From contig CAIYRH010000015.1 in NCBI GenBank assembly GCA_903928565.1, positions 11,569-75,568 of the forward strand: a stretch of 64,000 nucleotides of DNA, written 5' to 3'. The stretch comes from Candidatus Staskawiczbacteria bacterium (lineage in GTDB: Bacteria > Patescibacteriota > Minisyncoccia > Minisyncoccales > Staskawiczbacteraceae). Shown piece by piece: positions 4,143 to 52,903 of the stretch (its first letter is position 1; each line of letters starts with the position of its first letter). The translations under genes and the position numbers were made by a program. The notes under the pieces are model-generated. The model saw nothing but the letters and a program-made list of their open reading frames with translations, had not been told where the DNA came from and searched no databases.

Positions 4143-5174
4143 ATGGATATAATAACAATAGTTCTATTAATAATTATTCTACTTGTTTTGGGTTTTTTGT
4201 TGTTGCGTAAAGGGCCGGAAGTTGAGAAAAAAGATGATGGGTCTATGCTTATGTTGCAACAACAACTAAGCCAATTGGCAAATGCAGTAGACAGCAAACT
4301 TTCAGAATCTAACAAAAATGTTCAAGAGCAATTTAAGCACTCGGCCGATATAATTAGAAATGTTACCGAAAAATTAACCAAGCTAGATGAAACCAACAGG
4401 CAAGTGGTTAGTTTTGCCGACCAACTAAAAAGTTTGCAAGACATTTTAAAAAACCCAAAACAGCGCGGAATTCTTGGCGAGTATTATTTAGAAACTGTTT
4501 TAAAAAATGTTTTACCGCCGGCAAGTTTTCAGATGCAGTATAGCTTTTCAAACGGTGAAATTGTTGACGCAGTTGTTTTTGTAGATAAAAGAATAATTCC
4601 TGTTGATTCAAAATTTTCTTTAGATAATTACAACAGAATGTTGCAGACTAACGACCCTGTTGAGAAAAAAAGATTAGAAACGGCTTTTGTAAATGACTTA
4701 AAATTAAGAATTGACGAAACTTCAAAGTATGTAAGACCCGAAGAAAAAACAATGGATTTTGCATTTATGTTTATTCCTTCGGAAGCGGTTTATTACGATT
4801 TGCTAATTAATAAAGTTGGTGTAATTGCCGAAGATACAAATAATTTAATTTATTATGCGGGCAAGAAAAAAGTTATTGTTGTTTCGCCAACTTCATTTTT
4901 GGCTTATTTGCAGACTGTTTTGCAGGGATTAAGAAATCAAAAAATTTCGGAGCAAGCGGCTTCTATTATTAAAGAAGTTGAGCGGTTGGGTAAGCATTTA
5001 TTTGTGTATGGTGAGCATTTTAACAGAATGGGCCAGCATTTAGACACAACAGTTAGCAGTTTTAATAAAGCAAGGGTGGAATTTGGAAAAATTGATAAAG
5101 ATGTTATTAAGTTAACTGGTGGCGAATCTAAAATTGAAATTGGGGAGGTTAAGAGGCCGACAGTTGACGAATAG
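4143..5174 (+). CDS. rmuC: DNA recombination protein RmuC
   Basis: 343 aa with an N-terminal TM segment, a coiled-coil and a RmuC-like core (GILGEYYLETVL, FMFIPSEAVY). Confidence 0.85.
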   Translation: MDIITIVLLIIILLVLGFLLLRKGPEVEKKDDGSMLMLQQQLSQLANAVDSKLSESNKNVQEQFKHSADIIRNVTEKLTKLDETNRQVVSFADQLKSLQDILKNPKQRGILGEYYLETVLKNVLPPASFQMQYSFSNGEIVDAVVFVDKRIIPVDSKFSLDNYNRMLQTNDPVEKKRLETAFVNDLKLRIDETSKYVRPEEKTMDFAFMFIPSEAVYYDLLINKVGVIAEDTNNLIYYAGKKKVIVVSPTSFLAYLQTVLQGLRNQKISEQAASIIKEVERLGKHLFVYGEHFNRMGQHLDTTVSSFNKARVEFGKIDKDVIKLTGGESKIEIGEVKRPTVDE

Positions 5175-5213
5175 GGGATTTTTTGCTAAGATATATCTAT
5201 ATAAAACATACAT

Positions 5214-5519
5214 ATGATAGCTATAATAAAAACCGGTGGGAAACAATATTTAGTTAAACCCGGAGACAAATTAAAGGTAGAAAAATTACTCAAAGAAGTT
5301 GGGGAGGAAGTTGTTTTCTCTGACGTTTTATTAGTTGAAAAGGCCAAAAAAGTGGAAATTGGTGCTCCATTTGTGACAGCTCAAGTCCATGCAAAGGTTT
5401 TGAGCCATGGCAAAGGAAGCAAAATAATTGTCTATAAATATAAACCAAAGAAAAGAGAAAGCAGAAAAATTGGTCACAGACAACCTTATACAGAGGTAGA
5501 AATAACGGGAATTAAATAA
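5214..5519 (+). CDS. rplU: 50S ribosomal protein L21
   Basis: MIAIIKTGGKQYLVKPGDKLKVEKL is a typical bL21 N-terminus. 101 aa. Confidence 0.95.
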   Translation: MIAIIKTGGKQYLVKPGDKLKVEKLLKEVGEEVVFSDVLLVEKAKKVEIGAPFVTAQVHAKVLSHGKGSKIIVYKYKPKKRESRKIGHRQPYTEVEITGIK

Positions 5520-5525
5520 TTCAAG

Positions 5526-5545
5526 CCCCGCCCAGCGGGGTTTTT
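5526..5545 (+). terminator. rho-independent terminator after rplU
   Basis: Hairpin CCCCGC-cca-GCGGGG followed by TTTTT. Confidence 0.8.
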
Positions 5546-5556
5546 AGTTGTGCAAT

Positions 5557-6333
5557 ATGTTAAAAAAAGAAATTGGGTGGCTTTTAAAAGAGAAATATTT
5601 TGGGGTCGCTAACAAAAAATTCCAAAAAGATGTAGAGCGGTTAAAGGCGGGTGAGCCGGTTGACTATGTAATTGGTTTTACAGAGTTTTTGGGTTGTAAA
5701 ATTGATTTATCTAAAAAACCATTAATTCCGCGCCCAGAAACTGAATTCTGGGTTGGTGAGGTTATTAAAAAAAATGGCGATATTTTTTACGGCCGTCAAA
5801 AATGTGGCCCTTTGGTTTTGGACATGTTTGCAGGGTCTGGGTGCATTGGAATTGCTTTGTTAAAAAATATTAAAAATATAGAATGCGACTTTGCGGATAA
5901 AGATAAAAAATGTTTAGAGCAAATAAAAATAAATTTAAAGTTAAACGGAGTTAAAGGCAAAGTAATTTGCTCAAATGTTTTTAGTGAAGTCGTGGGGAAG
6001 TACGATATAATTTTTTCTAACCCGCCGTATATTCCAACAACAAGAAAAAATAAAATTCAAAAAACGGTTATAAAGTTTGAACCCAAAATTGCGTTGTTTG
6101 GCGGCGCTAGTGGAATGTTTTTTATAAATAAATTTTTGAAGGACGCAAAAAAATACTTGAAGAAACCCGTCTTCGCCAAGGCTTCGGCGAGGCGAGGGGG
6201 AATAATTTTTATGGAGTTCTCGCCGGAGCAGAAAGGTGCAATAGGAAAATTAGTAAAAAAATATAAATATTCTAAATGTGAATTTTTTAAGGATCAATTT
6301 AACCGCTGGCGGTGGATAAAAATATTTGCTTGA
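5557..6333 (+). CDS. prmC: release factor glutamine N5-methyltransferase PrmC/HemK
   Basis: SAM-binding motif [10 protein letters not shown] and catalytic NPPY (FSNPPYIP). The ATG at 5557 is preferred over the TTG at 5548. Confidence 0.88.
6166..6200 (+). repeat. GC-rich mini-element, in-frame inside prmC (encodes [12 protein letters not shown])
   Basis: Core TTCGCCAAGGCTTCGGCGAGGCGAGG. It is homologous to 18523-18566 and 56726-56768. It is absent at this position from E. coli PrmC as I recall that sequence. Confidence 0.8.
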
Positions 6334-6432
6334 TTTTTTTAACTTAGTACAATTAATTTAATAACCGCGTGTAGCACTTTGAAAATGTGCTCGTGGCTAT
6401 GATAAACCCCAAATCTAGAAGGAGGAGGCCGT

Positions 6433-6711
6433 ATGGGCAACAGACACAGGCGAAGAGGTTCTGGTCGTGGTGGACATGGCACCGCTCTAACTCAGCATCA
6501 TAGAAAATGCAAAAGTCGCGGTGGGGATAACAGTCCTGCAAATATTTCGTGGGTTCACTGGAGATTGCACAATGCATGGCATTTATTGTTTGACAATCTT
6601 CCGCCGGAAATAGTCTGCAGAATAATTAACACCATTTGGATTGACCCTCATTACAAATTTGTATGCGTAAAAAGAAAGCACACTCTACCAAACAAGCAAA
6701 ATAATTCATAG
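6433..6711 (+). CDS. small HNH nuclease-domain protein
   Basis: HHRKCKSRGGDNSPANISWVHWRLHNAWHLLF fits HH..SRGG..N..H..WH. GGAGG sits 6-7 nt upstream of the ATG. The gene is GC-rich. Confidence 0.7.
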   Translation: MGNRHRRRGSGRGGHGTALTQHHRKCKSRGGDNSPANISWVHWRLHNAWHLLFDNLPPEIVCRIINTIWIDPHYKFVCVKRKHTLPNKQNNS

Positions 6712-6724
6712 CCAAACATTCGGA

Positions 6725-6755
6725 AGCCCGACCAAACGCGTCGGGCTCATTTTTT
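6725..6755 (+). terminator. rho-independent terminator after the HNH gene
   Basis: AGCCCGAC-7 nt-GTCGGGCT followed by a T-run. Confidence 0.8.
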
Positions 6756-6756
6756 A

Positions 6757-6796
6757 TAAAAAAAATCCCTTGCGACGCGAGGGGCGTTTGCAAGGG
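6757..6796 (-). terminator. rho-independent terminator after the PAICS-like gene
   Basis: CCCTTGC...GCAAGGG with inner ACGC/GCGT pairing. A T8 run follows on the minus strand. Confidence 0.75.
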
Positions 6797-6819
6797 TATG
6801 GGTTTTTGAAATGAACTGG

Positions 6820-8061
6820 TTAGCCAACAGCAACGTTGCCCGGAAGTCCTGCTTCAAGGCTAACTCGCGCTAACATATATTGAAGTGGATTGTGCACCGC
6901 TAGAATGTTGAGAGCTTCGGTTATAGCACGATGTGTATATATGCAGTTAATGACGGGCGCACTAATGACGCATGAAAGAGCTTCACGATATTCGGGGTCC
7001 ACGTTGAGGTCAAAGAGAACCACCGTATCGGGGACCTCGTGCGTTAATGTAATCAATTTGAGCATTGCGTCGCTTGTTGTGCCATTCATTGAATCACGTA
7101 CAATTATCGATGGAATGCTTAATTGCGAGCGCTTATCGATAGCTTCAATAAGTTTGTCTCCAATGCCTGTTCCCCGCGGGTCGGTCCACAGAATAACGCG
7201 TTGGCGTGGCAGGGCGAAGTGACTGGTGAGCTCGGCAACCAGTTGGTACTTGCGAGTCACGTCGGAGAGGTCGCCACCGTCGCGGTAGACCTGTTTGTCA
7301 ATGTAGGCTCCGTCTTCAACAACGCGCCACGAGTCATTGTCAACCACGTCGGCTAGCAACAGTTTTCCAAAGGGGTCGGTGCCAAATTCCACCTTCATGT
7401 CCACTAGCCGGCGGTTTTCCAACTGCCATGCTTTTTCAAGGACAAAGAAAGTTTGGCGCGCCAAACGAGCCATTTCATTCATGAGCGCGTCTTCTCGCGC
7501 AACAGTAAAGACTTCCGCTTCGTTTAGCACCAAGAACGGTTCTTGCCCGGCAAGTGGTTTTGCGGGGTTATACAGTCGGATTAAATGAGCGGCGGCATCG
7601 TGAATCATTAGCGGGTCATCGCATGGAAGTTCGTGTTCCTTCCACCGCCGGCCGCTCGTTTTCAAGAAAAATTCAACCACCAGTTGTGGGAAAATGTGTC
7701 CTTTGGAAAGGTGCGGAGCGCGTTTGAGAGAAGAGCCATGGGCTTCGCGACGGGTGACGACTTCGTAGGGCAACATGTTGCACTTGGGGGCGATAAACCA
7801 GTCATCGCCACCTTGCATTTCGAACGCAACAGGAATTTGACAGGCTTTCAGAAACCTGAAAACATTGCAGGTAGTACGTGTGGCAATTCGGCCTTTGTCG
7901 GGAATGACGTCGTGTTTGGCGCCGTCGCCAGCAGTGATGTCGTCTTTTGCAATCAAGATTGCCCAGTCGGGGTTTCGCAGATGTTGGTGAACCCACTTGG
8001 TTTTACCTTGTGCTAAGACTTCTCCCAGCAGCTCCATTGGTATTAACGTTGTTGTTGGCAT
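6820..8061 (-). CDS. PAICS-like protein: SAICAR-synthase domain fused to a degenerate PurE/AIR-carboxylase-like domain
   Basis: 413 aa. GKTKWVH...KDDITAGDGAKHD...IAPKCNMLPYEVVTRREAHGSSLKR...LVDMKVEFG...LADVVDNDSWR...DKQVYRD matches SAICAR synthase. The C-terminal ~120 aa aligns positionally to PurE but lacks the GSxSD and SAH(R/K) motifs. About 50-60% GC. Confidence 0.75.
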   Translation of the reverse strand: MPTTTLIPMELLGEVLAQGKTKWVHQHLRNPDWAILIAKDDITAGDGAKHDVIPDKGRIATRTTCNVFRFLKACQIPVAFEMQGGDDWFIAPKCNMLPYEVVTRREAHGSSLKRAPHLSKGHIFPQLVVEFFLKTSGRRWKEHELPCDDPLMIHDAAAHLIRLYNPAKPLAGQEPFLVLNEAEVFTVAREDALMNEMARLARQTFFVLEKAWQLENRRLVDMKVEFGTDPFGKLLLADVVDNDSWRVVEDGAYIDKQVYRDGGDLSDVTRKYQLVAELTSHFALPRQRVILWTDPRGTGIGDKLIEAIDKRSQLSIPSIIVRDSMNGTTSDAMLKLITLTHEVPDTVVLFDLNVDPEYREALSCVISAPVINCIYTHRAITEALNILAVHNPLQYMLARVSLEAGLPGNVAVG

Positions 8062-8092
8062 GATGTTAGTTCCGGTTGGAAATGAACATTTA

Positions 8093-8130
8093 TCTAGTCA
8101 ATTTTGCTTAATCGTTAAGCAAAACCTAGA
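8093..8130. promoter_or_regulatory. 38-nt hairpin or operator-like inverted repeat in a divergent intergenic region
   Basis: TTTTGCTTAA-tcg-TTAAGCAAAA is a perfect 10-bp repeat, flanked by TCTAG/CTAGA. Confidence 0.5.
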
Positions 8131-8223
8131 CTATTTTGAGGTTATCTTATGTGCCACCATTTGTCAACCGCACTAGCGCCATTATATTTATTTAATATTA
8201 TATTTATGATAAAATTATTAAAT

Positions 8224-8910
8224 ATGAACAATAGGGCAATAAAATTATCACCGAATTCGTTGAATCTTTATTTGGAATGTCCGCATTGTTTTTGGCTAGA
8301 CAAAAATTTGGGCATTAAAAGGCCACCGCCATATCCATATGCGCTAAATTCAGCAGTTGATGCCTTGTTAAAAGAAGAATTTGATACTTACAGAGCAAAA
8401 AATTTACCGCATCCTCTATTGAAGGAAAATCATATTAAGGCGCACTTATTTGGTAATCAAAAATTATTAAATCAGTGGAGAAATAATTTAGCAGGCATAA
8501 GATATTTTGACGAAAATTTAAACGCAACTTTATTTGGCGCAGTTGATGACGTTTTAGAATTTGATAATGGTCAAATTGCTCCGCTAGATTATAAATCAAC
8601 TGGAAGCACGGCGGCAAACGTTTACGACAGGTTTCAGCTTCAATTAGATACTTACACATTTTTAATGGAAAAAAATGGCTACAAAACTCCTCACAAAGGC
8701 TATTTGGCCTTCTATATAGTAGACAAAAGTAGGGGATTCATTGACAGGTTGCCATTTAGAAAAGAAATTGTTGAAATAGAAACAAATCCACATGAAGTTC
8801 ACGAAATTTTTAAAGATGCAGTCAATATATTAAAGCACCCTCAACCGCCAGCTCATAGCTCAGATTGTGCGTTCAAAAAGTTTTTAGATGGCGCTGGGGG
8901 TTTCAATTAA
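8224..8910 (+). CDS. PD-(D/E)XK nuclease superfamily protein (Cas4/RecB-like fold)
   Basis: The ATG at 8224 is preferred. Features: N-terminal CPHC, GAVDDVLE, IAPLDYKSTG (D..DYK), QLQLDTY, and a C-terminal Cys. Confidence 0.65.
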   Translation: MNNRAIKLSPNSLNLYLECPHCFWLDKNLGIKRPPPYPYALNSAVDALLKEEFDTYRAKNLPHPLLKENHIKAHLFGNQKLLNQWRNNLAGIRYFDENLNATLFGAVDDVLEFDNGQIAPLDYKSTGSTAANVYDRFQLQLDTYTFLMEKNGYKTPHKGYLAFYIVDKSRGFIDRLPFRKEIVEIETNPHEVHEIFKDAVNILKHPQPPAHSSDCAFKKFLDGAGGFN

Positions 8911-8965: not shown

Positions 8966-10501
8966 ATGAAAATACCAAAATTTTTAAAACGAAAAAGAAA
9001 TCTCTGGATTATCGCAATTTTAGTGGTTGTAATTATAATTGGATTTTTTATTTTTAGTCCTAAAAATAAAAACGCCTCTATGCAAATCGGTTTTGCCACA
9101 AAACAAAATTTGCAAGAAACAGTTTTGTCTACCGGGCAGGTTTTAAGCTCTACAGACCTTGGTTTAAGTTTTCAGGGCAGTGGAGTTGTGCGAAATATTT
9201 ATGTAAAAGAAGGAGACACTGTAAAACAGGGGAAAGTTTTGGCTTCGCTTGATGCCGCTTCAGCCTATGCTACTTTAACATCTGCTCGGGGTTCTTTGGC
9301 TCAGGCACGGGCAAATTACGACAAGCTTTTGGCAGGTGCTTCTCAGCCAAGTTTACAAGTTGCCCAAGACACTGTTAATTCGGCGCAACAAGATGTAACC
9401 AACGCCTACAACGGAGCAATAAATACTTTAAATACTGGTTACACAGCAATTTATAATTCCGACTTTTTGGCTCTATCGGTGCAAGATGCTTATTTCCCAA
9501 CATCTGATAGAGTTGGTCTTGAAGTTAGAAACGCTAAAATTGAACTAGACGGCATTGTGCCAAACATAAAAAATTCATTAGATGCGGTTAAGGCAAATAT
9601 TACAAATCAAGGTGTTGATTCGCTGATATCTCATGAAATTATAGCCCTAAATACTACATATAACGATGTTAATGTCATTCGAGTGCAATGTGACGCAGAC
9701 ACATATAAAGATAGAATTCCCGATTCACAAAGAACGCTTTTAGACGCGCAAAAAACATCAATAAGTTCGGCGTTATTAGGAGTTACGTCGTTGCAACAAA
9801 ATTTAGCGTCTTTAAAATTGGCTTTACAACGGGCGCAAGACCAATTAAGTGTGACAACAGCTCCTCCAACTCAGGCCGACTTAAATTTGGCTCAGGGGCA
9901 GGTGCTTTCGGCACAAGGGCAGGTTGATGCTGCACAAGCGGTTTTAAATAATGCTATTATTATAGCTCCCGCAAACGGAACAATTACACAAGTTGACATT
10001 AAAGTTGGTGAATTGGCTACACCTTCTAAAGAAGCAATTATTCTGCAAAATGTTGGTAGCTTGCATGCAGAAGCCGACGTTAGTGAAGCCAACATTGCAA
10101 CTTTGCAAGTTGGTCAGCCGATAGATTACACCTTTGATGCGCTTGGGCCAGACCAACATTTTACCGGTAAAGTGTTAACTATAAACCCAGCTTCTACAGT
10201 AATTTCGGGAGTAGTTGATTATTTGGTGAAAGGAAGTTTAGACAACATTCCAAACTTAAAACCGGGCATGACAGCAAACATGACAATTTTGGTGGCGCAA
10301 AAAAATGATGTGTTGGCGGTGCCATCTACAGCAGTAATAAATAAGAATAATAAACAATATGTGCGCGTAATTGATAATGCCAAAAGTAAAACTTACCACG
10401 AAGTTCAAGTGCAAACCGGTTTGCAGGCTGACGGGGGATTAGTTGAAATTACTTCGGGGCTAAGCAACGGGCAAGAAATTATTATTTACATGAAGTCTTA
10501 A
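8966..10501 (+). CDS. HlyD/MacA-type periplasmic adaptor (membrane fusion) protein
   Basis: 511 aa with an N-terminal TM segment, a long coiled-coil and a beta-barrel C-terminus (APANGTITQVDIKVGE). It lies upstream of the ABC genes. Confidence 0.8.
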   Translation: MKIPKFLKRKRNLWIIAILVVVIIIGFFIFSPKNKNASMQIGFATKQNLQETVLSTGQVLSSTDLGLSFQGSGVVRNIYVKEGDTVKQGKVLASLDAASAYATLTSARGSLAQARANYDKLLAGASQPSLQVAQDTVNSAQQDVTNAYNGAINTLNTGYTAIYNSDFLALSVQDAYFPTSDRVGLEVRNAKIELDGIVPNIKNSLDAVKANITNQGVDSLISHEIIALNTTYNDVNVIRVQCDADTYKDRIPDSQRTLLDAQKTSISSALLGVTSLQQNLASLKLALQRAQDQLSVTTAPPTQADLNLAQGQVLSAQGQVDAAQAVLNNAIIIAPANGTITQVDIKVGELATPSKEAIILQNVGSLHAEADVSEANIATLQVGQPIDYTFDALGPDQHFTGKVLTINPASTVISGVVDYLVKGSLDNIPNLKPGMTANMTILVAQKNDVLAVPSTAVINKNNKQYVRVIDNAKSKTYHEVQVQTGLQADGGLVEITSGLSNGQEIIIYMKS

Positions 10502-17914: not shown

Positions 17915-18014
17915 TTGATATTTCGCTCGCCAAATCAAATTTTTGCTCGTAGGGGGAATGTCCCCAAGGCGATTGCCCCTCCTCCAAAAATTTATTTGGC
18001 TCGCTCTAAATTAA

Positions 18015-19129: not shown

Positions 19130-19606
19130 ATGAAAAAAAATAAGCTTGAACGCTTGATTGCGTTCTATGGTGCGCTCGTAGGAGTAATCCGCAGTAGGGA
19201 GTTTGTGACTGCTTCTGCCGAAACGCTAGTTGAAATATACAGCGAAATGGTGGCCGAACTTTCAGTCCCCATTGTCACTGTTGACGACCTTCGTGAAATC
19301 CACTCGGATTATCACAATAACAACGCAGATCTCGACGTCCTGGAAGAAATTGCCGGATACGCGTTTAAGGACTTAGCTCCTCATATGGAAGATCCAAGAG
19401 TCCGCGTCATTTTTCAGGATTTGAAAGAGATGTCCGGCACCGACCAGTATACCGACCTCTTCCTCCACATTGTGGAAATCCGCCAATTGAGCGACTCGAA
19501 CGATGGGCCGACAGAAATCACACTGGTTGTTGATAACTACGGGCGTTTTGTAGACCTCTTGCAAGAGGACAGCAACATAGAAGTTGTGCACTCCTCGGCT
19601 TCCTAG
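19130..19606 (+). CDS. acidic hypothetical protein (GC-rich island gene)
   Basis: 158-aa ORF with AGGAG 7 nt upstream of the ATG. GC is elevated and the gene has its own terminator. Confidence 0.6.
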   Translation: MKKNKLERLIAFYGALVGVIRSREFVTASAETLVEIYSEMVAELSVPIVTVDDLREIHSDYHNNNADLDVLEEIAGYAFKDLAPHMEDPRVRVIFQDLKEMSGTDQYTDLFLHIVEIRQLSDSNDGPTEITLVVDNYGRFVDLLQEDSNIEVVHSSAS

Positions 19607-28351: not shown

Positions 28352-28422
28352 GGGCCCATAGTAAATCGGTATTACGCCTCCATGGCATGGAGGAGGGCCG
28401 GGTTCGATTCCCGGTGGGTCCA
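28352..28422 (+). tRNA. tRNA-Ala (anticodon GGC), no encoded CCA
   Basis: Manual cloverleaf: acceptor GGGCCCA/TGGGTCC with the G3:U70 Ala identity pair; D stem GTAA/TTAC; anticodon stem CCTCC/GGAGG with loop AT-GGC-AT; T arm CCGGG-TTCGATT-CCCGG. Confidence 0.9.
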
Positions 28423-28477
28423 CTTTTAAGCCCTTTGTCAACCAAGCAACTCAACCCCAAAATAGGAGATTATCGCC

Positions 28478-28987
28478 ATGAACGCACCAATGATTGCTCC
28501 CGTTGTTTCGACAGTGTCGCACACCACCACTGTGCCAGTAGCGCCACATGTTGCCATGCCAATGGCCCCCATTTCACCAATGATTGCGCCGCCGGCGCCG
28601 GTTTTTGCACGCAAGCGTGAAGGAGGCAATGCCACGCCTCCAACAATTGCGACTTTTGCTCCCAGTGCGAAGGAAGTTACCCTTAAACAAGGGAAAACAT
28701 CACTCGACGCATTTGAGGTTATTTCTTACAGCCCTGAATTGCAGGAAAATCCATTTAATATTCCGATGTTTCAGGAAGCGCATACTAACTATGCGCAAGC
28801 GGTTGGATGGAATCCGCACATTAGCACCGAATTAGCATTCGCTTGCCTTGTCAGCGTTCCGGACTCGTTGAGTAATTTGAGGTTGATTGAACGGGATCCG
28901 GATAATAAGACGATGTTTCGAATAACTGATAGCGCGCGATGCTATTGCAACGGGCAAAAATGTGTGGAACACACGTTACGTAGATGA
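28478..28987 (+). CDS. hypothetical protein with a Pro/Ala/Met-rich N-terminus (GC-rich island)
   Basis: 169-aa ORF with AGGAG 9 nt upstream. N-terminus MNAPMIAP...MPMAPISPMIAPPAP. No family was recognised. Confidence 0.55.
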   Translation: MNAPMIAPVVSTVSHTTTVPVAPHVAMPMAPISPMIAPPAPVFARKREGGNATPPTIATFAPSAKEVTLKQGKTSLDAFEVISYSPELQENPFNIPMFQEAHTNYAQAVGWNPHISTELAFACLVSVPDSLSNLRLIERDPDNKTMFRITDSARCYCNGQKCVEHTLRR

Positions 28988-29945
28988 ATTGTCTGCAACG
29001 GACATCACGCGGTTGGGGGTCGATACACTTAACGATATGTGTCGTAATCTGGGCAGGCTGAAGGCATTGTCGTCATATGTTAAAGAGTTGGCCGAACGAG
29101 CTCTAGCCCTTTCGGTTGGTCTGCCAACTATGTTGGCTAGCGGTGGACCCGAACCAGTCATTGTTAGATTAAGTCAAATTATTCATCGACTTTCTGCGGG
29201 GAATGGGAGTAATAATAGCGAAAATTACAATAACGAACTGGCAAGGCTTTTGTCGGCAATCAAAAGCAGCTTGTCTAAGCTTGTCGATCTTTTTGACGCG
29301 ACCCTTTATGACAGTGCTCCAATTGTCGTCGCTTTTACCAACAAGTGCGATGACGCAAGTATTATTCGTGCTCTCATAGACGAATATTTGCATATCTGTA
29401 ATTACGATGTGAACTCAATCACTGCCTGTGAATCTTCCGTTGTGCGAAGTGAAATTCGCTACCAATTTGCAAACATTGGGAATGACGTGTTGACTATTAC
29501 GCCGGAATCTCAAGCCGGCATCGCGAGGTTCGCTGTTGGTCCCATGGCGCTAAACGACATGGGCATTAGCCTGGAATTAGCGCCTGCGCAAATTCGTCTG
29601 GAGTGCAGCAACCTCATATCATCAATTGTAGATTGTGTGAATGAATATAGAGCGCATCTGCGTATTACAATTTATTGGAAATACCCAGATTTTGCTTTGG
29701 CAGCAATGCGCGCCATTTCTCAGATGTTAGACGAGGGAGTAGTCACCGGCGTTCAAGTCTACCAACAATTGGCTGGTTTTAAATCTAGCATGCGCGATGC
29801 ATTTGCAAAAGACTTAGACCCTCTTGTTGGCGAAGCCTCAAATTCCCGCAATGCTGTAGTTGAAAACGTATGTAGCATCATTGACCAGGCGGTTGCAATT
29901 CTTGGTCAAAGATTACCCGAGCTTCAAGAGGCTGGTGTTGCTTAA
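28962..29945 (+). CDS. hypothetical protein (GC-rich island)
   Basis: 327-aa ORF overlapping the upstream ORF by 26 nt. A strong terminator follows. Confidence 0.6.
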   Translation: MWNTRYVDELSATDITRLGVDTLNDMCRNLGRLKALSSYVKELAERALALSVGLPTMLASGGPEPVIVRLSQIIHRLSAGNGSNNSENYNNELARLLSAIKSSLSKLVDLFDATLYDSAPIVVAFTNKCDDASIIRALIDEYLHICNYDVNSITACESSVVRSEIRYQFANIGNDVLTITPESQAGIARFAVGPMALNDMGISLELAPAQIRLECSNLISSIVDCVNEYRAHLRITIYWKYPDFALAAMRAISQMLDEGVVTGVQVYQQLAGFKSSMRDAFAKDLDPLVGEASNSRNAVVENVCSIIDQAVAILGQRLPELQEAGVA

Positions 29946-42197: not shown

Positions 42198-43169
42198 TTA
42201 CGTCTTATCTGGGTCGGAATGAAACTGATGATGAATGTCACGCAAGCGTTTGTTTGTTACGTGCGTGTAAATTTGAGTGGTGGCGATATTTGAATGGCCA
42301 AGAAATTCTTGAATGCTTCGAAGGTCAACACCTTGGTTCATTAAATCTGTTGCATATGAATGTCTAAGTGTGTGAGGTGTGGTAAAAATTGGCACGCCTG
42401 AAAGTAATGCATATTTTTTAACCATGCGTTCAATAGATCTTGGCGTAAGCCGGGCATTTGTATCATCTTTTTTATCGCGAAAATTTATAAACAAAGCTTT
42501 TTGGTTGGCATGCGAAACATCATTTCTTATTTTAAGATAATCTTTAATAAAATTAATGGCACGTTCAGAAAAATAAACAACGCGCGGTTTTCCGCCCTTT
42601 CCAATAACTCCAAGTTCCATGTCCCTTTTTTCTTTCAAACTATTAAACTGTTCAAGGTTGAGTGAAACCAATTCGGCAATGCGCAAACCAGTTGAGAAAA
42701 AGGATTCTAAAATAGCCCTGTCGCGGGTGGTTATGTTGTCTTTAGGCTCTATAGAGGCCAAAAGCTTACTAACTTGGTCCAGGGTAAGGAATTTAACGCT
42801 TTTTAGCGCTCTATCGGCCTTTGCAAGGGCTATTTTGTCTGGGGGCAGTGAAAGTACGTCTTTTGCCACAAAGTAGCCTAAAAAAGCTCTTAGAGCGATT
42901 AAATAGTAGTTTTGGGTGCCCTTAGATAGCAATTTACCGGTGGCTGGGCTTGGGGTGCGGGAAAGGTATAAACGATAGGTCCAAATATGGTCTGCGGTTA
43001 ATTGATGGGGGAGCAGAAGGTCATTTTTGCTCTCGGCGAGCCAATAAAAAAACTTAATTAAATAATTTTTATAATTCTCTTGAGTATTTTTTCTTAAACC
43101 TTTTTCAACTTCACAAAAGTCTAAAAAATCTTGTAGATGTTCTTTAATTGGTTTTGATGATTTTTGCAT
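42198..43169 (-). CDS. tyrosine site-specific recombinase (XerC/XerD-like integrase family)
   Basis: SAM-like N-terminal domain. Catalytic residues in RIAEL, HTLRHSYAT, LGHSNIATTQIYTHV. Confidence 0.88.
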   Translation of the reverse strand: MQKSSKPIKEHLQDFLDFCEVEKGLRKNTQENYKNYLIKFFYWLAESKNDLLLPHQLTADHIWTYRLYLSRTPSPATGKLLSKGTQNYYLIALRAFLGYFVAKDVLSLPPDKIALAKADRALKSVKFLTLDQVSKLLASIEPKDNITTRDRAILESFFSTGLRIAELVSLNLEQFNSLKEKRDMELGVIGKGGKPRVVYFSERAINFIKDYLKIRNDVSHANQKALFINFRDKKDDTNARLTPRSIERMVKKYALLSGVPIFTTPHTLRHSYATDLMNQGVDLRSIQEFLGHSNIATTQIYTHVTNKRLRDIHHQFHSDPDKT

Positions 43170-51412: not shown

Positions 51413-52903
51413 TTAGTTTTCCGAGGAAAGGCGTCTAAATACAATGATAAACAGAAATACCAGCACAAGAGCCACCAAAATCCAAATGTACCATTTCTTA
51501 ATAAAACCCCAGAAGCCACTTGTGGCTGCGTTTGCCGATGCAACTGATGCTGTAGGCTGGCTTGGGTTAAGATTTATTGAGATAGAATCTGACTGTGTGG
51601 CGCCCGAGGCCGAAATTGTTGCCACAGCAGGCTTTGCTGCCGTAGTTGAAATTGTTTGAGTTTTACCTTCAAACGTTACTGGTTTTGTACTAGATGGAGC
51701 AAGAGACCCAATGTTTATGCCCGAAACAATATCTCCAGAAACTGGGACTCCATTAAGCTGAACATTCCCCAAAGAAGAAATTTCTGTTGGAATGTTTGCA
51801 GAAATTACAACGTTATCAATTTGAGCCGTTGAATTATTTGTTGCGGTTACCATGAAATAAATTTGGCTGCTAGAACCCACTTGAGCAGTTTTTTGCCATT
51901 GGGTTGAATTTGCATCTTGTTTTGCAAAGAAAGTAATTGCTAATCCGCTGGACACATTTATTTTACAATCGGCAGGGCAATTGGCATTTGTTTCGTTTAA
52001 TGTAGTTTCACAAAGTCCGTTTCCGCAAACATATTGCACTGACGGTGTAATTGGACCAGCTGGCGTGGTAGGTTGTGTTTGTGAGCAATATTTATTGTAA
52101 TCTGCCGAACCCGAAGTACAGGTTGAACCGTCGCATTTTAGTACATTTGAGCACTTATTGCCCGAGCACGAGTCTATTGTGCAGTTATTACTGTCATTGC
52201 ATCTTTTATAAATTCCGCTTTCTGCACCTAAATTATCAAACCAGTTTATTGAATTGCCATAACAGGCAGTTTTGTAATGTGCCACATAATTGTTGGCCGG
52301 TTGGACCGGAGGCAAAACAGGATTATAAATGTAAGCTGCGCATTGCCCATACTGACAGGTTTGCCCACCCGAGCAACTGTAATAAATGTCTTGTTGTGTG
52401 CCACAAGAATCATACCAGTAAATATTATTACCAGAGCATTGTTTGTAGGCGTGATAAGTGCAATTGCTATAGTTGTTGTAATTATTATAGTTGTAATTAT
52501 TATAATTTTGGCATGAGTTACTGTAGCAACCGTTAGTGCAATATTGCGATAAATCTTGCTGATTACCGCAAGAATCGTACCAATATAGGTTGTTTCCGTT
52601 ACACCTTTGGAATGAATGGTATGTGCAATTATTATAGTTATTGTTGTAATTATTGTTGTAATTTTGGCAGACATTATTGTAACATCCATTAGAGCAATAT
52701 TGTGCTACATCTTGTAAATTATTACAAGAATCATACCAATACATATTGCCGTTACTACACATTTGGTATGAATGGTTTGTACAGCCGTAATATAATGCAT
52801 TTGCAATGCCTGGCGTAAACAACGTCAAAACTAGCATTGCTGTTAAGAAGATGCCTCCAACTATTAGTTTACTTGTAATTTGTGTATACATGTTATTTGA
52901 CAT
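51413..52903 (-). CDS. Cys-rich repeat surface protein with a C-terminal TM anchor
   Basis: Signal/anchor N-terminus. About 3.5 repeats of C.YH.Y..C.GNN.YWYDSCG.QQD..YC..GC....C separated by N/Y linkers. The C-terminus is hydrophobic. Confidence 0.75.
   Translation of the reverse strand: MSNNMYTQITSKLIVGGIFLTAMLVLTLFTPGIANALYYGCTNHSYQMCSNGNMYWYDSCNNLQDVAQYCSNGCYNNVCQNYNNNYNNNYNNCTYHSFQRCNGNNLYWYDSCGNQQDLSQYCTNGCYSNSCQNYNNYNYNNYNNYSNCTYHAYKQCSGNNIYWYDSCGTQQDIYYSCSGGQTCQYGQCAAYIYNPVLPPVQPANNYVAHYKTACYGNSINWFDNLGAESGIYKRCNDSNNCTIDSCSGNKCSNVLKCDGSTCTSGSADYNKYCSQTQPTTPAGPITPSVQYVCGNGLCETTLNETNANCPADCKINVSSGLAITFFAKQDANSTQWQKTAQVGSSSQIYFMVTATNNSTAQIDNVVISANIPTEISSLGNVQLNGVPVSGDIVSGINIGSLAPSSTKPVTFEGKTQTISTTAAKPAVATISASGATQSDSISINLNPSQPTASVASANAATSGFWGFIKKWYIWILVALVLVFLFIIVFRRLSSEN
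52334..52783 (-). repeat. tandem ~150-bp coding repeats with AAT/TAT-rich (Asn/Tyr) linkers
   Basis: Repeat units at aa 41-92, 93-147 and 148-190 of the surface protein. Confidence 0.8.

Follow-up and report, generated by a model that had tools for sequence, protein, structure and literature searches.

We analysed a block of two convergent genes at positions 6340–8130 of a 64,000-nucleotide stretch of DNA from a Candidatus Staskawiczbacteria bacterium (contig CAIYRH010000015.1 of assembly GCA_903928565.1; the whole stretch is called the window below, and all coordinates refer to it unless a sibling locus is named). The block fills the space between prmC and a PD-(D/E)XK nuclease gene, referred to here as the slot, and consists of a small gene with an H-N-H motif and a gene of the PAICS type, that is, a fusion of purC, coding for the synthetase of succinylaminoimidazolecarboxamide ribonucleotide (SAICAR), and purE. 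An original prediction, made from the sequence alone, had taken the block for a GC-rich island that pairs an HNH nuclease with a PAICS-like protein in phage defence or counter-defence. The evidence presented here points to a metabolic gene of foreign origin and an independent selfish gene.

Genes and signals between prmC and the nuclease gene

The features of the block and of its two flanks are as follows.

5548–6333, plus strand: prmC, coding for a HemK-family N5-glutamine methyltransferase (Pfam MTS 2.6e-14, weak PrmC_N, NPPY motif); conserved left flank of the slot
6334–6432, plus strand: left junction and 5′ region of the HNH gene, read from the sequence and containing its Shine-Dalgarno (SD) site
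6419–6428, plus strand: SD site AAGGAGGAGG, 5 nt before the ATG of the HNH gene
6433–6711, plus strand: small HNH-motif gene, 92 aa, with motif residues H22, H23, N37, H46 and H50
6725–6757, plus strand: intrinsic terminator of the HNH gene (hairpin 6725–6747, then a T-run; 8 pairs, 6 of them GC)
6757–6796, minus strand: intrinsic terminator of the PAICS-type gene (hairpin 6767–6796, then U8)
6820–8061, minus strand: PAICS-type gene, 413 aa, with purC-purE fusion architecture
6820–7206, minus strand: C-terminal half of the PAICS-type protein (aa 286–413), a degenerate class-II-PurE-like domain
7207–8061, minus strand: N-terminal half of the PAICS-type protein (aa 1–285), a SAICAR synthetase (PurC) domain (Pfam SAICAR_synt, PF01259, 8e-39)
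8093–8130, no strand: palindromic 38-nt hairpin in the divergent intergenic region, 32–69 nt upstream of the PAICS start codon
8149–8910, plus strand: Cas4-like PD-(D/E)XK nuclease gene (Pfam PDDEXK_1 3.9e-10, PADLOC Cas4b 7.7e-12); conserved right flank of the slot

The GC content rose from about 0.33–0.38 in the flanks to 0.44–0.55 across positions 6300–8100, so that the block at 6340–8130 is GC-rich as predicted. Against 59 host genes (GC, 0.369 ± 0.035; GC at third codon positions (GC3), 0.316 ± 0.054), the PAICS-type gene stood far out (GC, 0.509; GC3, 0.529; z = 3.9), and the HNH gene (GC, 0.427; GC3, 0.387) differed with a z of 1.3. The anomaly is essentially that of the PAICS-type gene, the HNH gene being mildly GC-richer than the background, and the idea of a two-gene GC-rich island thus holds for the former gene and only weakly for the latter. 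The presence of foreign DNA between prmC and the nuclease gene, as such, is supported. A classical integrative genomic island or prophage was rejected, since no integrase, tRNA or flanking direct repeats were found at the block borders; the only tRNA of the window lies at 28352 and its only integrase-family gene at 42198–43169, neither of them at the slot.

The two genes form separate transcription units, each ending in the terminator of its own that had been predicted: the hairpin of the HNH gene folds with –15.1 kcal/mol (z = –3.45) and that of the PAICS-type gene with –16.6 kcal/mol (z = –4.11), the latter being more stable than all of 200 shuffled sequences. The GGAGG before the HNH gene was likewise confirmed, together with the claim that host genes lack such sites, as 56 of the 59 host genes have no GGAG, GAGG or AGGA within 20 nt upstream, which makes the SD site of the HNH gene atypical for the genome. 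Over the window as a whole, GGAGG is not enriched (46 occurrences versus 43 ± 6 expected). Another SD-like exception, GGAGGAGG, was found at 17978–17985 on the minus strand, upstream of efp.

The hairpin at 8093–8130, originally described as operator-like, is real in terms of folding (z = –3.7 on the plus strand and –4.4 on the minus strand). As a conserved operator or a repeated element it was rejected: the orthologous gene of 28 sibling species has no copy of it upstream, the window contains no repeat of it, and the hairpin is unique to this genome and without an Rfam match. Moreover, purine and ZTP riboswitches were sought with Rfam in 6200–8400 with no match at E ≤ 1. The open reading frame (ORF) of the PD-(D/E)XK nuclease probably starts at 8206 or 8224, because the sibling alignments begin at residue 23–29, and the divergent intergenic region is therefore about 145–160 nt long; it contains overlapping TTGACA and TTGTCA boxes on opposite strands at about 8161–8166.

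The two halves of the PAICS-type protein and its relatives

Alignment of the 413-aa protein with 60 full-length homologs revealed that its two halves differ sharply in conservation. The N-terminal PurC half is identical in 135 of the 142 columns conserved at ≥90%, and its active-site columns are those of housekeeping enzymes. The half shares 77% of its residues with P0002, the nearest relative, just as the intact pair P0002 and P0004 do with each other (77%), and it shows no rate acceleration. The C-terminal PurE-like half, in contrast, keeps 23 of 51 columns conserved at the same level, 16 more being deleted, and its identity to P0002 is 34%, compared with 75% for the intact pair. The two domains differ also in GC3 (0.57 for the N-domain and 0.44 for the C-domain).

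In human PAICS, the active-site loops of the AIRC domain, which carboxylates aminoimidazole ribonucleotide (AIR), are MGSTSD, SAHK and AGRSNGLGP, and His303 is the general base, a residue found throughout PurE of classes I and II and indispensable there (PMC9376930). In the window protein, the universal catalytic His is replaced by Asn326, the substitutions G294D, S295P and D298T are present, the motif GxSNGAGP reads NxDPEYRE, and 26 aa are deleted in frame. Pfam AIRC (PF00731), carried by nearly all of the 120 best homologs, gave no match in the window protein even at E ≤ 0.1. With all three active-site loops lost, the C-half is, to judge from its residues, catalytically dead and not an AIR carboxylase. 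Thus, the designation PAICS-like stands for the architecture, and it fails for the PurE half, which is degenerate and without a Pfam AIRC domain. A frameshift as the cause of this divergence was rejected, the residual homology lying in a single frame, and a search with the C-domain alone returned no other protein with the same degenerate domain.

The conservation of the N-half, set beside a C-half that fell to 34% identity and lost 26 aa, indicates that purifying selection has acted on PurC after PurE died. We conclude that the PurC half is probably under purifying selection and that the PurE half is a probable pseudoenzyme domain. The protein appears to represent a familiar type of enzyme in a form not met before, with PurC and PurE fused as in PAICS and the PurE half reduced to a pseudoenzyme.

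A compact α/β fold is nevertheless predicted for the degenerate C-half by AlphaFold2 (AF2), in a model of the 413-aa protein with a predicted local distance difference test score (pLDDT) of 90 that rests on an alignment of intact homologs, which guides the C-domain fold. The best Foldseek matches of the model were human and insect PAICS over both domains, across about 430 columns (6YB8, E = 1.8e-27; 4JA0, E = 5e-25), and the best Protein Data Bank matches by sequence were silkworm and human PAICS (E = 2e-37). As a separate observation, a PurC of the PAICS type stands alone in the JGI locus Ga0207043_1055 (L128, 3752–7716); it has 304 aa and 50% identity to the N-domain of the window protein, and behind it lie in tandem a PAICS-type gene of full length (441 aa) and PurB (483 aa). 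The PurC domain of this type is thus found in nature without a PurE domain as well.

Homologs of the PAICS-type protein numbered 2809 at E ≤ 1e-3. The best 120 of them, for which properties were described, are mostly SAICAR_synt+AIRC fusions of about 435 aa that are 50–68% identical to the window protein, several being assigned by their sources to Verrucomicrobia/Verrucomicrobiota, Tepidisphaerales or Xanthobacteraceae. In a neighbour-joining tree, the window protein nests in a Verrucomicrobia-type clade, apart from the PAICS-type genes of sibling Staskawiczbacteria; it is 35–44% identical to the three sibling proteins (loci L009, L011 and L016), and its gene is the only one of the slot's PAICS-type genes on the minus strand. 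For these reasons, it is regarded as a separate xenolog at the same site in this genome. A metagenome scan for closer relatives returned only loci that are 24–44% identical. The verrucomicrobial ortholog P0010, which lies among housekeeping genes, has a GC3 of 0.80, in comparison with which the window gene (0.53) appears to be partly ameliorated.

These relationships indicate that the PAICS-type gene was acquired horizontally from a Verrucomicrobiota/Planctomycetota-like lineage. A phage origin was considered and rejected, as IMG/VR yielded only single-domain PurC of 27–28% identity and GenBank phages only cyanophage purC of 30–32%. One series of assemblies from the European Nucleotide Archive (ENA; ERZ1426562, ERZ1426628, ERZ1426817 and ERZ1426827) yields contigs of this Staskawiczbacterium, of P0002 and of P0010, and possible donor lineages and the recipient may share a habitat.

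The slot in sibling genomes and the small HNH gene

A scan with the PD-(D/E)XK protein gave 28 loci, one per species, most of them from metagenome-assembled genomes labelled Candidatus Staskawiczbacteria (Patescibacteria, Parcubacteria group). The gene order RmuC, L21, PrmC, slot, PD-(D/E)XK, HlyD, ABC is conserved in the 28 species, with prmC orthologs (49–65% identity) upstream of the slot. The PD-(D/E)XK orthologs are 71–85% identical and occupy the same position in 28 of 28 species, whether the slot is filled or not; the nuclease gene is therefore a host core gene and not island cargo, which speaks against a defence role of the block. The distance from PrmC to PD-(D/E)XK is 7–50 nt in five species (L017, L022, L028, L035 and L036) and below 500 nt in five further ones, so that ten siblings are empty or nearly empty. 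Purine genes, namely PurB, PurC, PurE, PurC-E, PAICS, PurH or GuaA, fill the slot at 14 of the 28 loci, in the following distribution.

L009, L011, L016: PAICS-type fusions
L018, L019, L020, L024, L025, L031: a different, longer PurC-PurE fusion
L010, L012, L027: separate PurC with or without PurE
L010, L011, L012, L018, L031: PurB, of at least three lineages that are 21–39% identical to each other
L013: PurH, with a remnant in L023
L023, L031: GuaA

Across these slots, PurC and PurE occur in at least three architectures. The GC3 of the slot purine genes exceeds that of host genes in every species (z = 1.7–14.7), and about 430 kb of flanking sequence yielded no homologs of them beyond the slot. 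The slot is a lineage-wide variable site: it is empty or nearly so, or else it is occupied by late purine-pathway genes that are GC-rich and look foreign. We found no paper describing this prmC/PD-(D/E)XK slot in literature searches. A correlation of slot-gene with flank identity did not discriminate vertical from horizontal descent, the species being roughly equidistant. The PurB group (60–63%) and the long PurC-E group (48–58%) diverge like the flanking PrmC, yet they keep an elevated GC3, where amelioration would be expected had they been inherited vertically.

Several slots show further peculiarities. The PAICS gene of L016 (about 4380–5722) has an in-frame TAG near its 5′ end, and L023 holds a 139-aa PurH remnant at 9503–9922. 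In L031 (3874–9238), prmC, guaA and purC-E each come as two separate ORFs, a fragmentation that may stem from indel errors in long reads and not be biological. In L034 (8181–9930), the slot is occupied by three minus-strand non-purine ORFs (249, 244 and 69 aa) of native GC content (0.35).

The second gene of the block belongs to a family of its own. A word-indexed search returned a single non-self relative, P0122; with an exhaustive HMMER search, 647 clusters were recovered at E ≤ 1e-3, of which 139 reached E ≤ 1e-10. Most are proteins of 70–130 aa, and their alignment yields the motif HHRxPxSxGG-x5-N(I/L)SxV-x4-HxAWHxLFxNxxPxEIxxxINxxWxDPxYxF. Residues H22, H23, N37, H46 and H50 are invariant or nearly so in the family alignment, and the window copy keeps all of them. 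As to the predicted HNH nuclease, the motif residues are thus present, and the Pfam HNH model (PF01844) falls short on the window protein (E = 0.066; 13.8 bits versus a gathering score of 21.4); at E ≤ 0.01 it matches 7 of 31 aligned family members. Compared with colicin E7, the family profile falls on its H-N-H motif with E = 0.005. The AF2 model contains a ββα core (β19–23, β38–42, α43–52) with a pLDDT of 94–98, and its top Foldseek matches, each with E > 1, are nearly all HNH nucleases (McrA, ColE7/E9, Gme, Cas9 HNH), superposed with root-mean-square deviations of 0.8–1.6 Å over about 35 residues.

The family is common in uncultured phages. A scan of IMG/VR with a six-sequence family alignment found members on at least 76 uncultured viral contigs, and others occur on further contigs that belong to the candidate phyla radiation (CPR); none was found in GenBank phage records. 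Two relatives on long contigs are part of replication modules of phage character that comprise ERF, a YqaJ or PD-(D/E)XK exonuclease and DnaB; one of the modules additionally has SSB and a LexA-like repressor. Most simply, the HNH gene would be a phage-derived selfish gene that landed, probably independently of its neighbour, in a recombination-prone site. The functional pairing that had been proposed does not agree with the distribution of the family, as no SAICAR-synthetase or PAICS homolog occurs in 769 kb of HNH-family loci. An exception is L031, where a family member at 9465–9884 sits beside a different type of purC-E gene; it encodes a two-repeat protein, the first repeat of which has lost the catalytic residues (HH to HL, H46 to E and H50 to N).

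Internal repetition was seen elsewhere in the family: P0122 (153 aa; L001 10001–11281, GCA_964464695.1, another CPR genome) has an internal duplication of the AWHxLF segment, and P0123, P0159 and P0244 are multi-repeat members with 2–4 matched stretches in 260–294 aa. P0122 also adjoins a PDDEXK_1 gene. A conserved pair of HNH and PD-(D/E)XK genes was rejected as an explanation; the PD-(D/E)XK proteins of the two loci are not detectably related to each other, and the shared arrangement is regarded as coincidence.

Weighing the explanations and comparison with known systems

Members of the CPR/Patescibacteria are thought to live off host nucleotides. The premise of the original prediction that CPR organisms lack purine synthesis holds in general, 93% of Patescibacteria genomes being without de novo nucleotide synthesis and the existing genes being phylogenetically scattered (bioRxiv 10.64898/2026.06.21.733656); it is not universal, since synthesis of inosine monophosphate has been reported for some Paceibacteria (PMC9166423). 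CPR metabolic repertoires have been moulded by lateral transfer (PMC7304191). The accompanying statement that the window has no other purine gene was upheld both by tblastn, in which sibling PurB, PurC, PurE, PurH and GuaA queries matched only the PAICS-type gene, and by Pfam searches of 40 further ORFs of the window.

Collectively, we favour, with a probability of roughly 0.6, the explanation that the block is a metabolic xenolog in a lineage-wide purine-gene hotspot beside an independent selfish HNH gene, the two forming neither a functional pair nor a defence system. That purB, purC, purE, purH and guaA recur together at a single site is the mark of metabolism and not of defence. In the proposed course of events, the purC-purE fusion would have been acquired horizontally into the slot and its N-domain kept by selection; most likely, this domain still ligates carboxyaminoimidazole ribonucleotide (CAIR) and aspartate with ATP to form SAICAR, which would serve whatever purine pathway the organism retains. 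The dead C-domain would persist as a folded appendage, plausibly as an oligomerisation scaffold, because the PAICS octamer is built around a core of AIRc domains. The small, separately transcribed HNH gene would have landed in the same hotspot on its own.

Several points weigh against this explanation. Neither the slot nor the 64-kb window contains purB, purE or purH, so that nothing seen there would supply CAIR or use up SAICAR, and with the PurE half dead, PurC is left without an obvious substrate supply unless another PurE is encoded elsewhere. The decay seen in sibling slots (the TAG in L016 and the PurH remnant in L023) suggests that the window gene could also be on its way out. The NCBIfam equivalog model for PurC, TIGR00081, scores 83.5 bits, below its cutoff of 189.9, a model built on single-domain PurC to which the PAICS-type N-domain matches in two pieces. 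The guidance of the AF2 model by intact homologs tells against reading much into the compact fold of the C-domain. Finally, the HNH family occurs twice in 493 kb of Staskawiczbacteria DNA, in the window and in L031, and as both copies lie in the slot, some link between HNH gene and slot is hinted at.

The first of these points lead to the strongest competitor, which we nonetheless consider unlikely: that the whole PAICS-type gene no longer functions and is what remains of a purine cassette in the course of being lost, its PurC half simply not yet having decayed. The dead PurE domain, the missing partner genes, the ten sibling slots that are empty or nearly so, the premature stop in L016 with the PurH remnant in L023, and the rarity of de novo nucleotide synthesis among Patescibacteria (93% without it, in the preprint cited above) would all fit such a relic. 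A decaying gene is, however, hard to reconcile with an N-domain that has kept 95% of its conserved columns and 77% identity to the nearest homolog while the C-domain fell to 34%, with an intact ORF followed by its own terminator, or with the recovery of a near-identical sequence (two residue differences in one case) in several independent metagenome assemblies.

Somewhat more doubtful is a bolder reading, in which the junction of prmC and the Cas4-like gene would be a dedicated capture site. Nucleotide-scavenging, probably naturally competent episymbionts would there time and again swap late purine genes for xenologs of GC-rich neighbours, possibly their hosts, with phage-type HNH genes driving or marking the exchanges; the window enzyme would be a new kind of SAICAR synthetase in which the dead PurE is no junk and serves as a scaffold or as a CAIR- or AIR-binding module.

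A shade weaker again is the possibility of a link through mobility without any biochemical link, the HNH protein acting like a homing endonuclease at the junction of prmC and PD-(D/E)XK and thereby spreading the adjacent purine cassette. In phages, free-standing endonucleases such as those of the T4 seg and mob genes drive co-conversion of the genes beside them. The phage-borne nature of the family, the complete set of catalytic residues in the window copy, the repeated xenologous replacement in the slot and the location of the sole two family genes of the 493 kb would accord with it. On the other hand, of 15 filled slots only 2 contain an HNH gene, catalytic residues are gone from the L031 copy, the two copies are only 38% identical and lie on opposite sides of the purine genes, and neither a target site nor flanking repeats came to light.

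The defence or counter-defence role originally proposed, by which a SAICAR-synthetase-family enzyme and a nuclease would modify or deplete nucleotides during phage infection, now appears very improbable. In its favour are the position of the PAICS gene between two nuclease genes, its foreign origin, its being the sole purine enzyme in the window and the listing of purC in PHROGs as a phage auxiliary gene. PADLOC-DB v2, however, has no match for either protein, only the conserved neighbour matching Cas4 models, and that neighbour is a core gene in 28 of 28 species whatever the slot holds. The two genes converge on separate terminators and form no operon, and the 769 kb of HNH-family loci contain neither PurC nor PAICS. 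Moreover, the sibling slots (14 of 28 with purine genes) carry the pathway genes PurB, PurH and GuaA, the PurC active-site columns are of the housekeeping type, and phage purC is only 27–32% identical and lacks the C-domain. The window contains no CRISPR-like repeat array, and no cas gene was found among its 46 Pfam-scanned ORFs. An assembly or binning chimera, in which the GC-rich segment would come from another organism as the sharp compositional jump and the closest homologs from other phyla might suggest, is effectively refuted, since both junctions lie within one contig, the right junction (PAICS, PD-(D/E)XK, HlyD) was reassembled independently in L007 (2 mismatches in 4023 nt) and in two further ENA contigs, analogous GC-rich purine genes occupy the same site in sibling genomes from unrelated studies, and the gene is partly ameliorated (GC3, 0.53 versus 0.80 in the verrucomicrobial ortholog).

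On the favoured explanation of a metabolic xenolog beside a selfish gene, the single locus amounts to ordinary metabolism plus a selfish gene, and a false lead is removed, as no new nucleotide-based defence system is at hand. It is the comparative pattern that merits follow-up. Within this lineage of the CPR, the late steps of the purine pathway (PurE, PurC, PurB, PurH and GuaA) are accessory, compositionally foreign and confined to a single slot, which offers a testable system for gene capture by episymbionts with respect to the donors, the entry of DNA at one site and the apparent non-amelioration. The window protein, with its conserved PurC half and its apparent pseudoenzyme PurE half, would in addition be a natural experiment in domain death within a PAICS-type fusion.

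Away from the slot, three further observations were made in the window. The tRNA-Ala at 28352–28423 is followed by two GC-richer ORFs without a Pfam match, 28478–28987 (GC, 0.49) and 28962–29945 (GC, 0.456), which may represent a second foreign insert. The ORF at 19130–19606 (158 aa, no Pfam match) has the highest GC3 among host genes, 0.55. A 496-aa ORF without a Pfam match (51413–52903) contains, at 52485–52780, a 156-nt tandem repeat in 1.9 copies with 76% matches.

Among known systems, the animal PAICS enzymes, bifunctional AIR carboxylases/SAICAR synthetases (human 2H31/6YB8 and silkworm 4JA0), share with the window protein the order of an N-terminal SAICAR synthetase and a C-terminal class-II-PurE-like domain, and they are the closest by sequence (E = 2e-37) and by predicted fold (6YB8, E = 1.8e-27, TM 0.67). 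Their identity to it is, however, about 25–27%, and the window C-domain lacks equivalents of MGSTSD, SAHK and AGRSNGLGP, has Asn326 in place of the His and carries the 26-aa deletion. The nearest relatives are the bacterial PurC-PurE fusions of 435 aa (Verrucomicrobiota, Planctomycetota and some Alphaproteobacteria; P0002–P0120), with 55–68% identity over the whole protein and 77% over the N-domain, in which the catalytic PurE residues are conserved in 98–100% of the 60 aligned; these sit in GC-rich genomes among housekeeping genes, whereas the window copy lies in a 37%-GC CPR genome, is 22 aa shorter and has a seemingly dead PurE domain. The purC auxiliary metabolic genes of cyanophages (PHROG 1112) belong to the same SAICAR-synthetase family (phrog_1112, 5e-26) and differ from the window gene in identity (27–32%), in having a single domain and in belonging to another clade.

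For the small gene, the counterparts are the H-N-H nucleases of the colicin E7/E9 type and the small free-standing HNH proteins of phages, its pattern HH-x13-N-x8-H-x3-H aligning to the ColE7 motif within a predicted ββα core. The window protein, a putative nuclease, differs in having no zinc-binding cysteines; its conserved C-terminal extension, LFxNxxPxEIxxxINxxWxDPxYxF, has no annotated counterpart.

At the level of the site, the slot resembles xenologous gene displacement in situ, a phenomenon reportedly described by Omelchenko and colleagues in Genome Biology in 2003, in that unrelated versions of the same pathway genes are found at one conserved position across related species. Flexible-island hotspots between conserved core genes are a general concept. 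Compared with these general notions of displacement and hotspot, the slot described here is distinguished by receiving purine genes only, by belonging to a CPR lineage mostly without nucleotide synthesis, and by genes that keep their elevated GC3.

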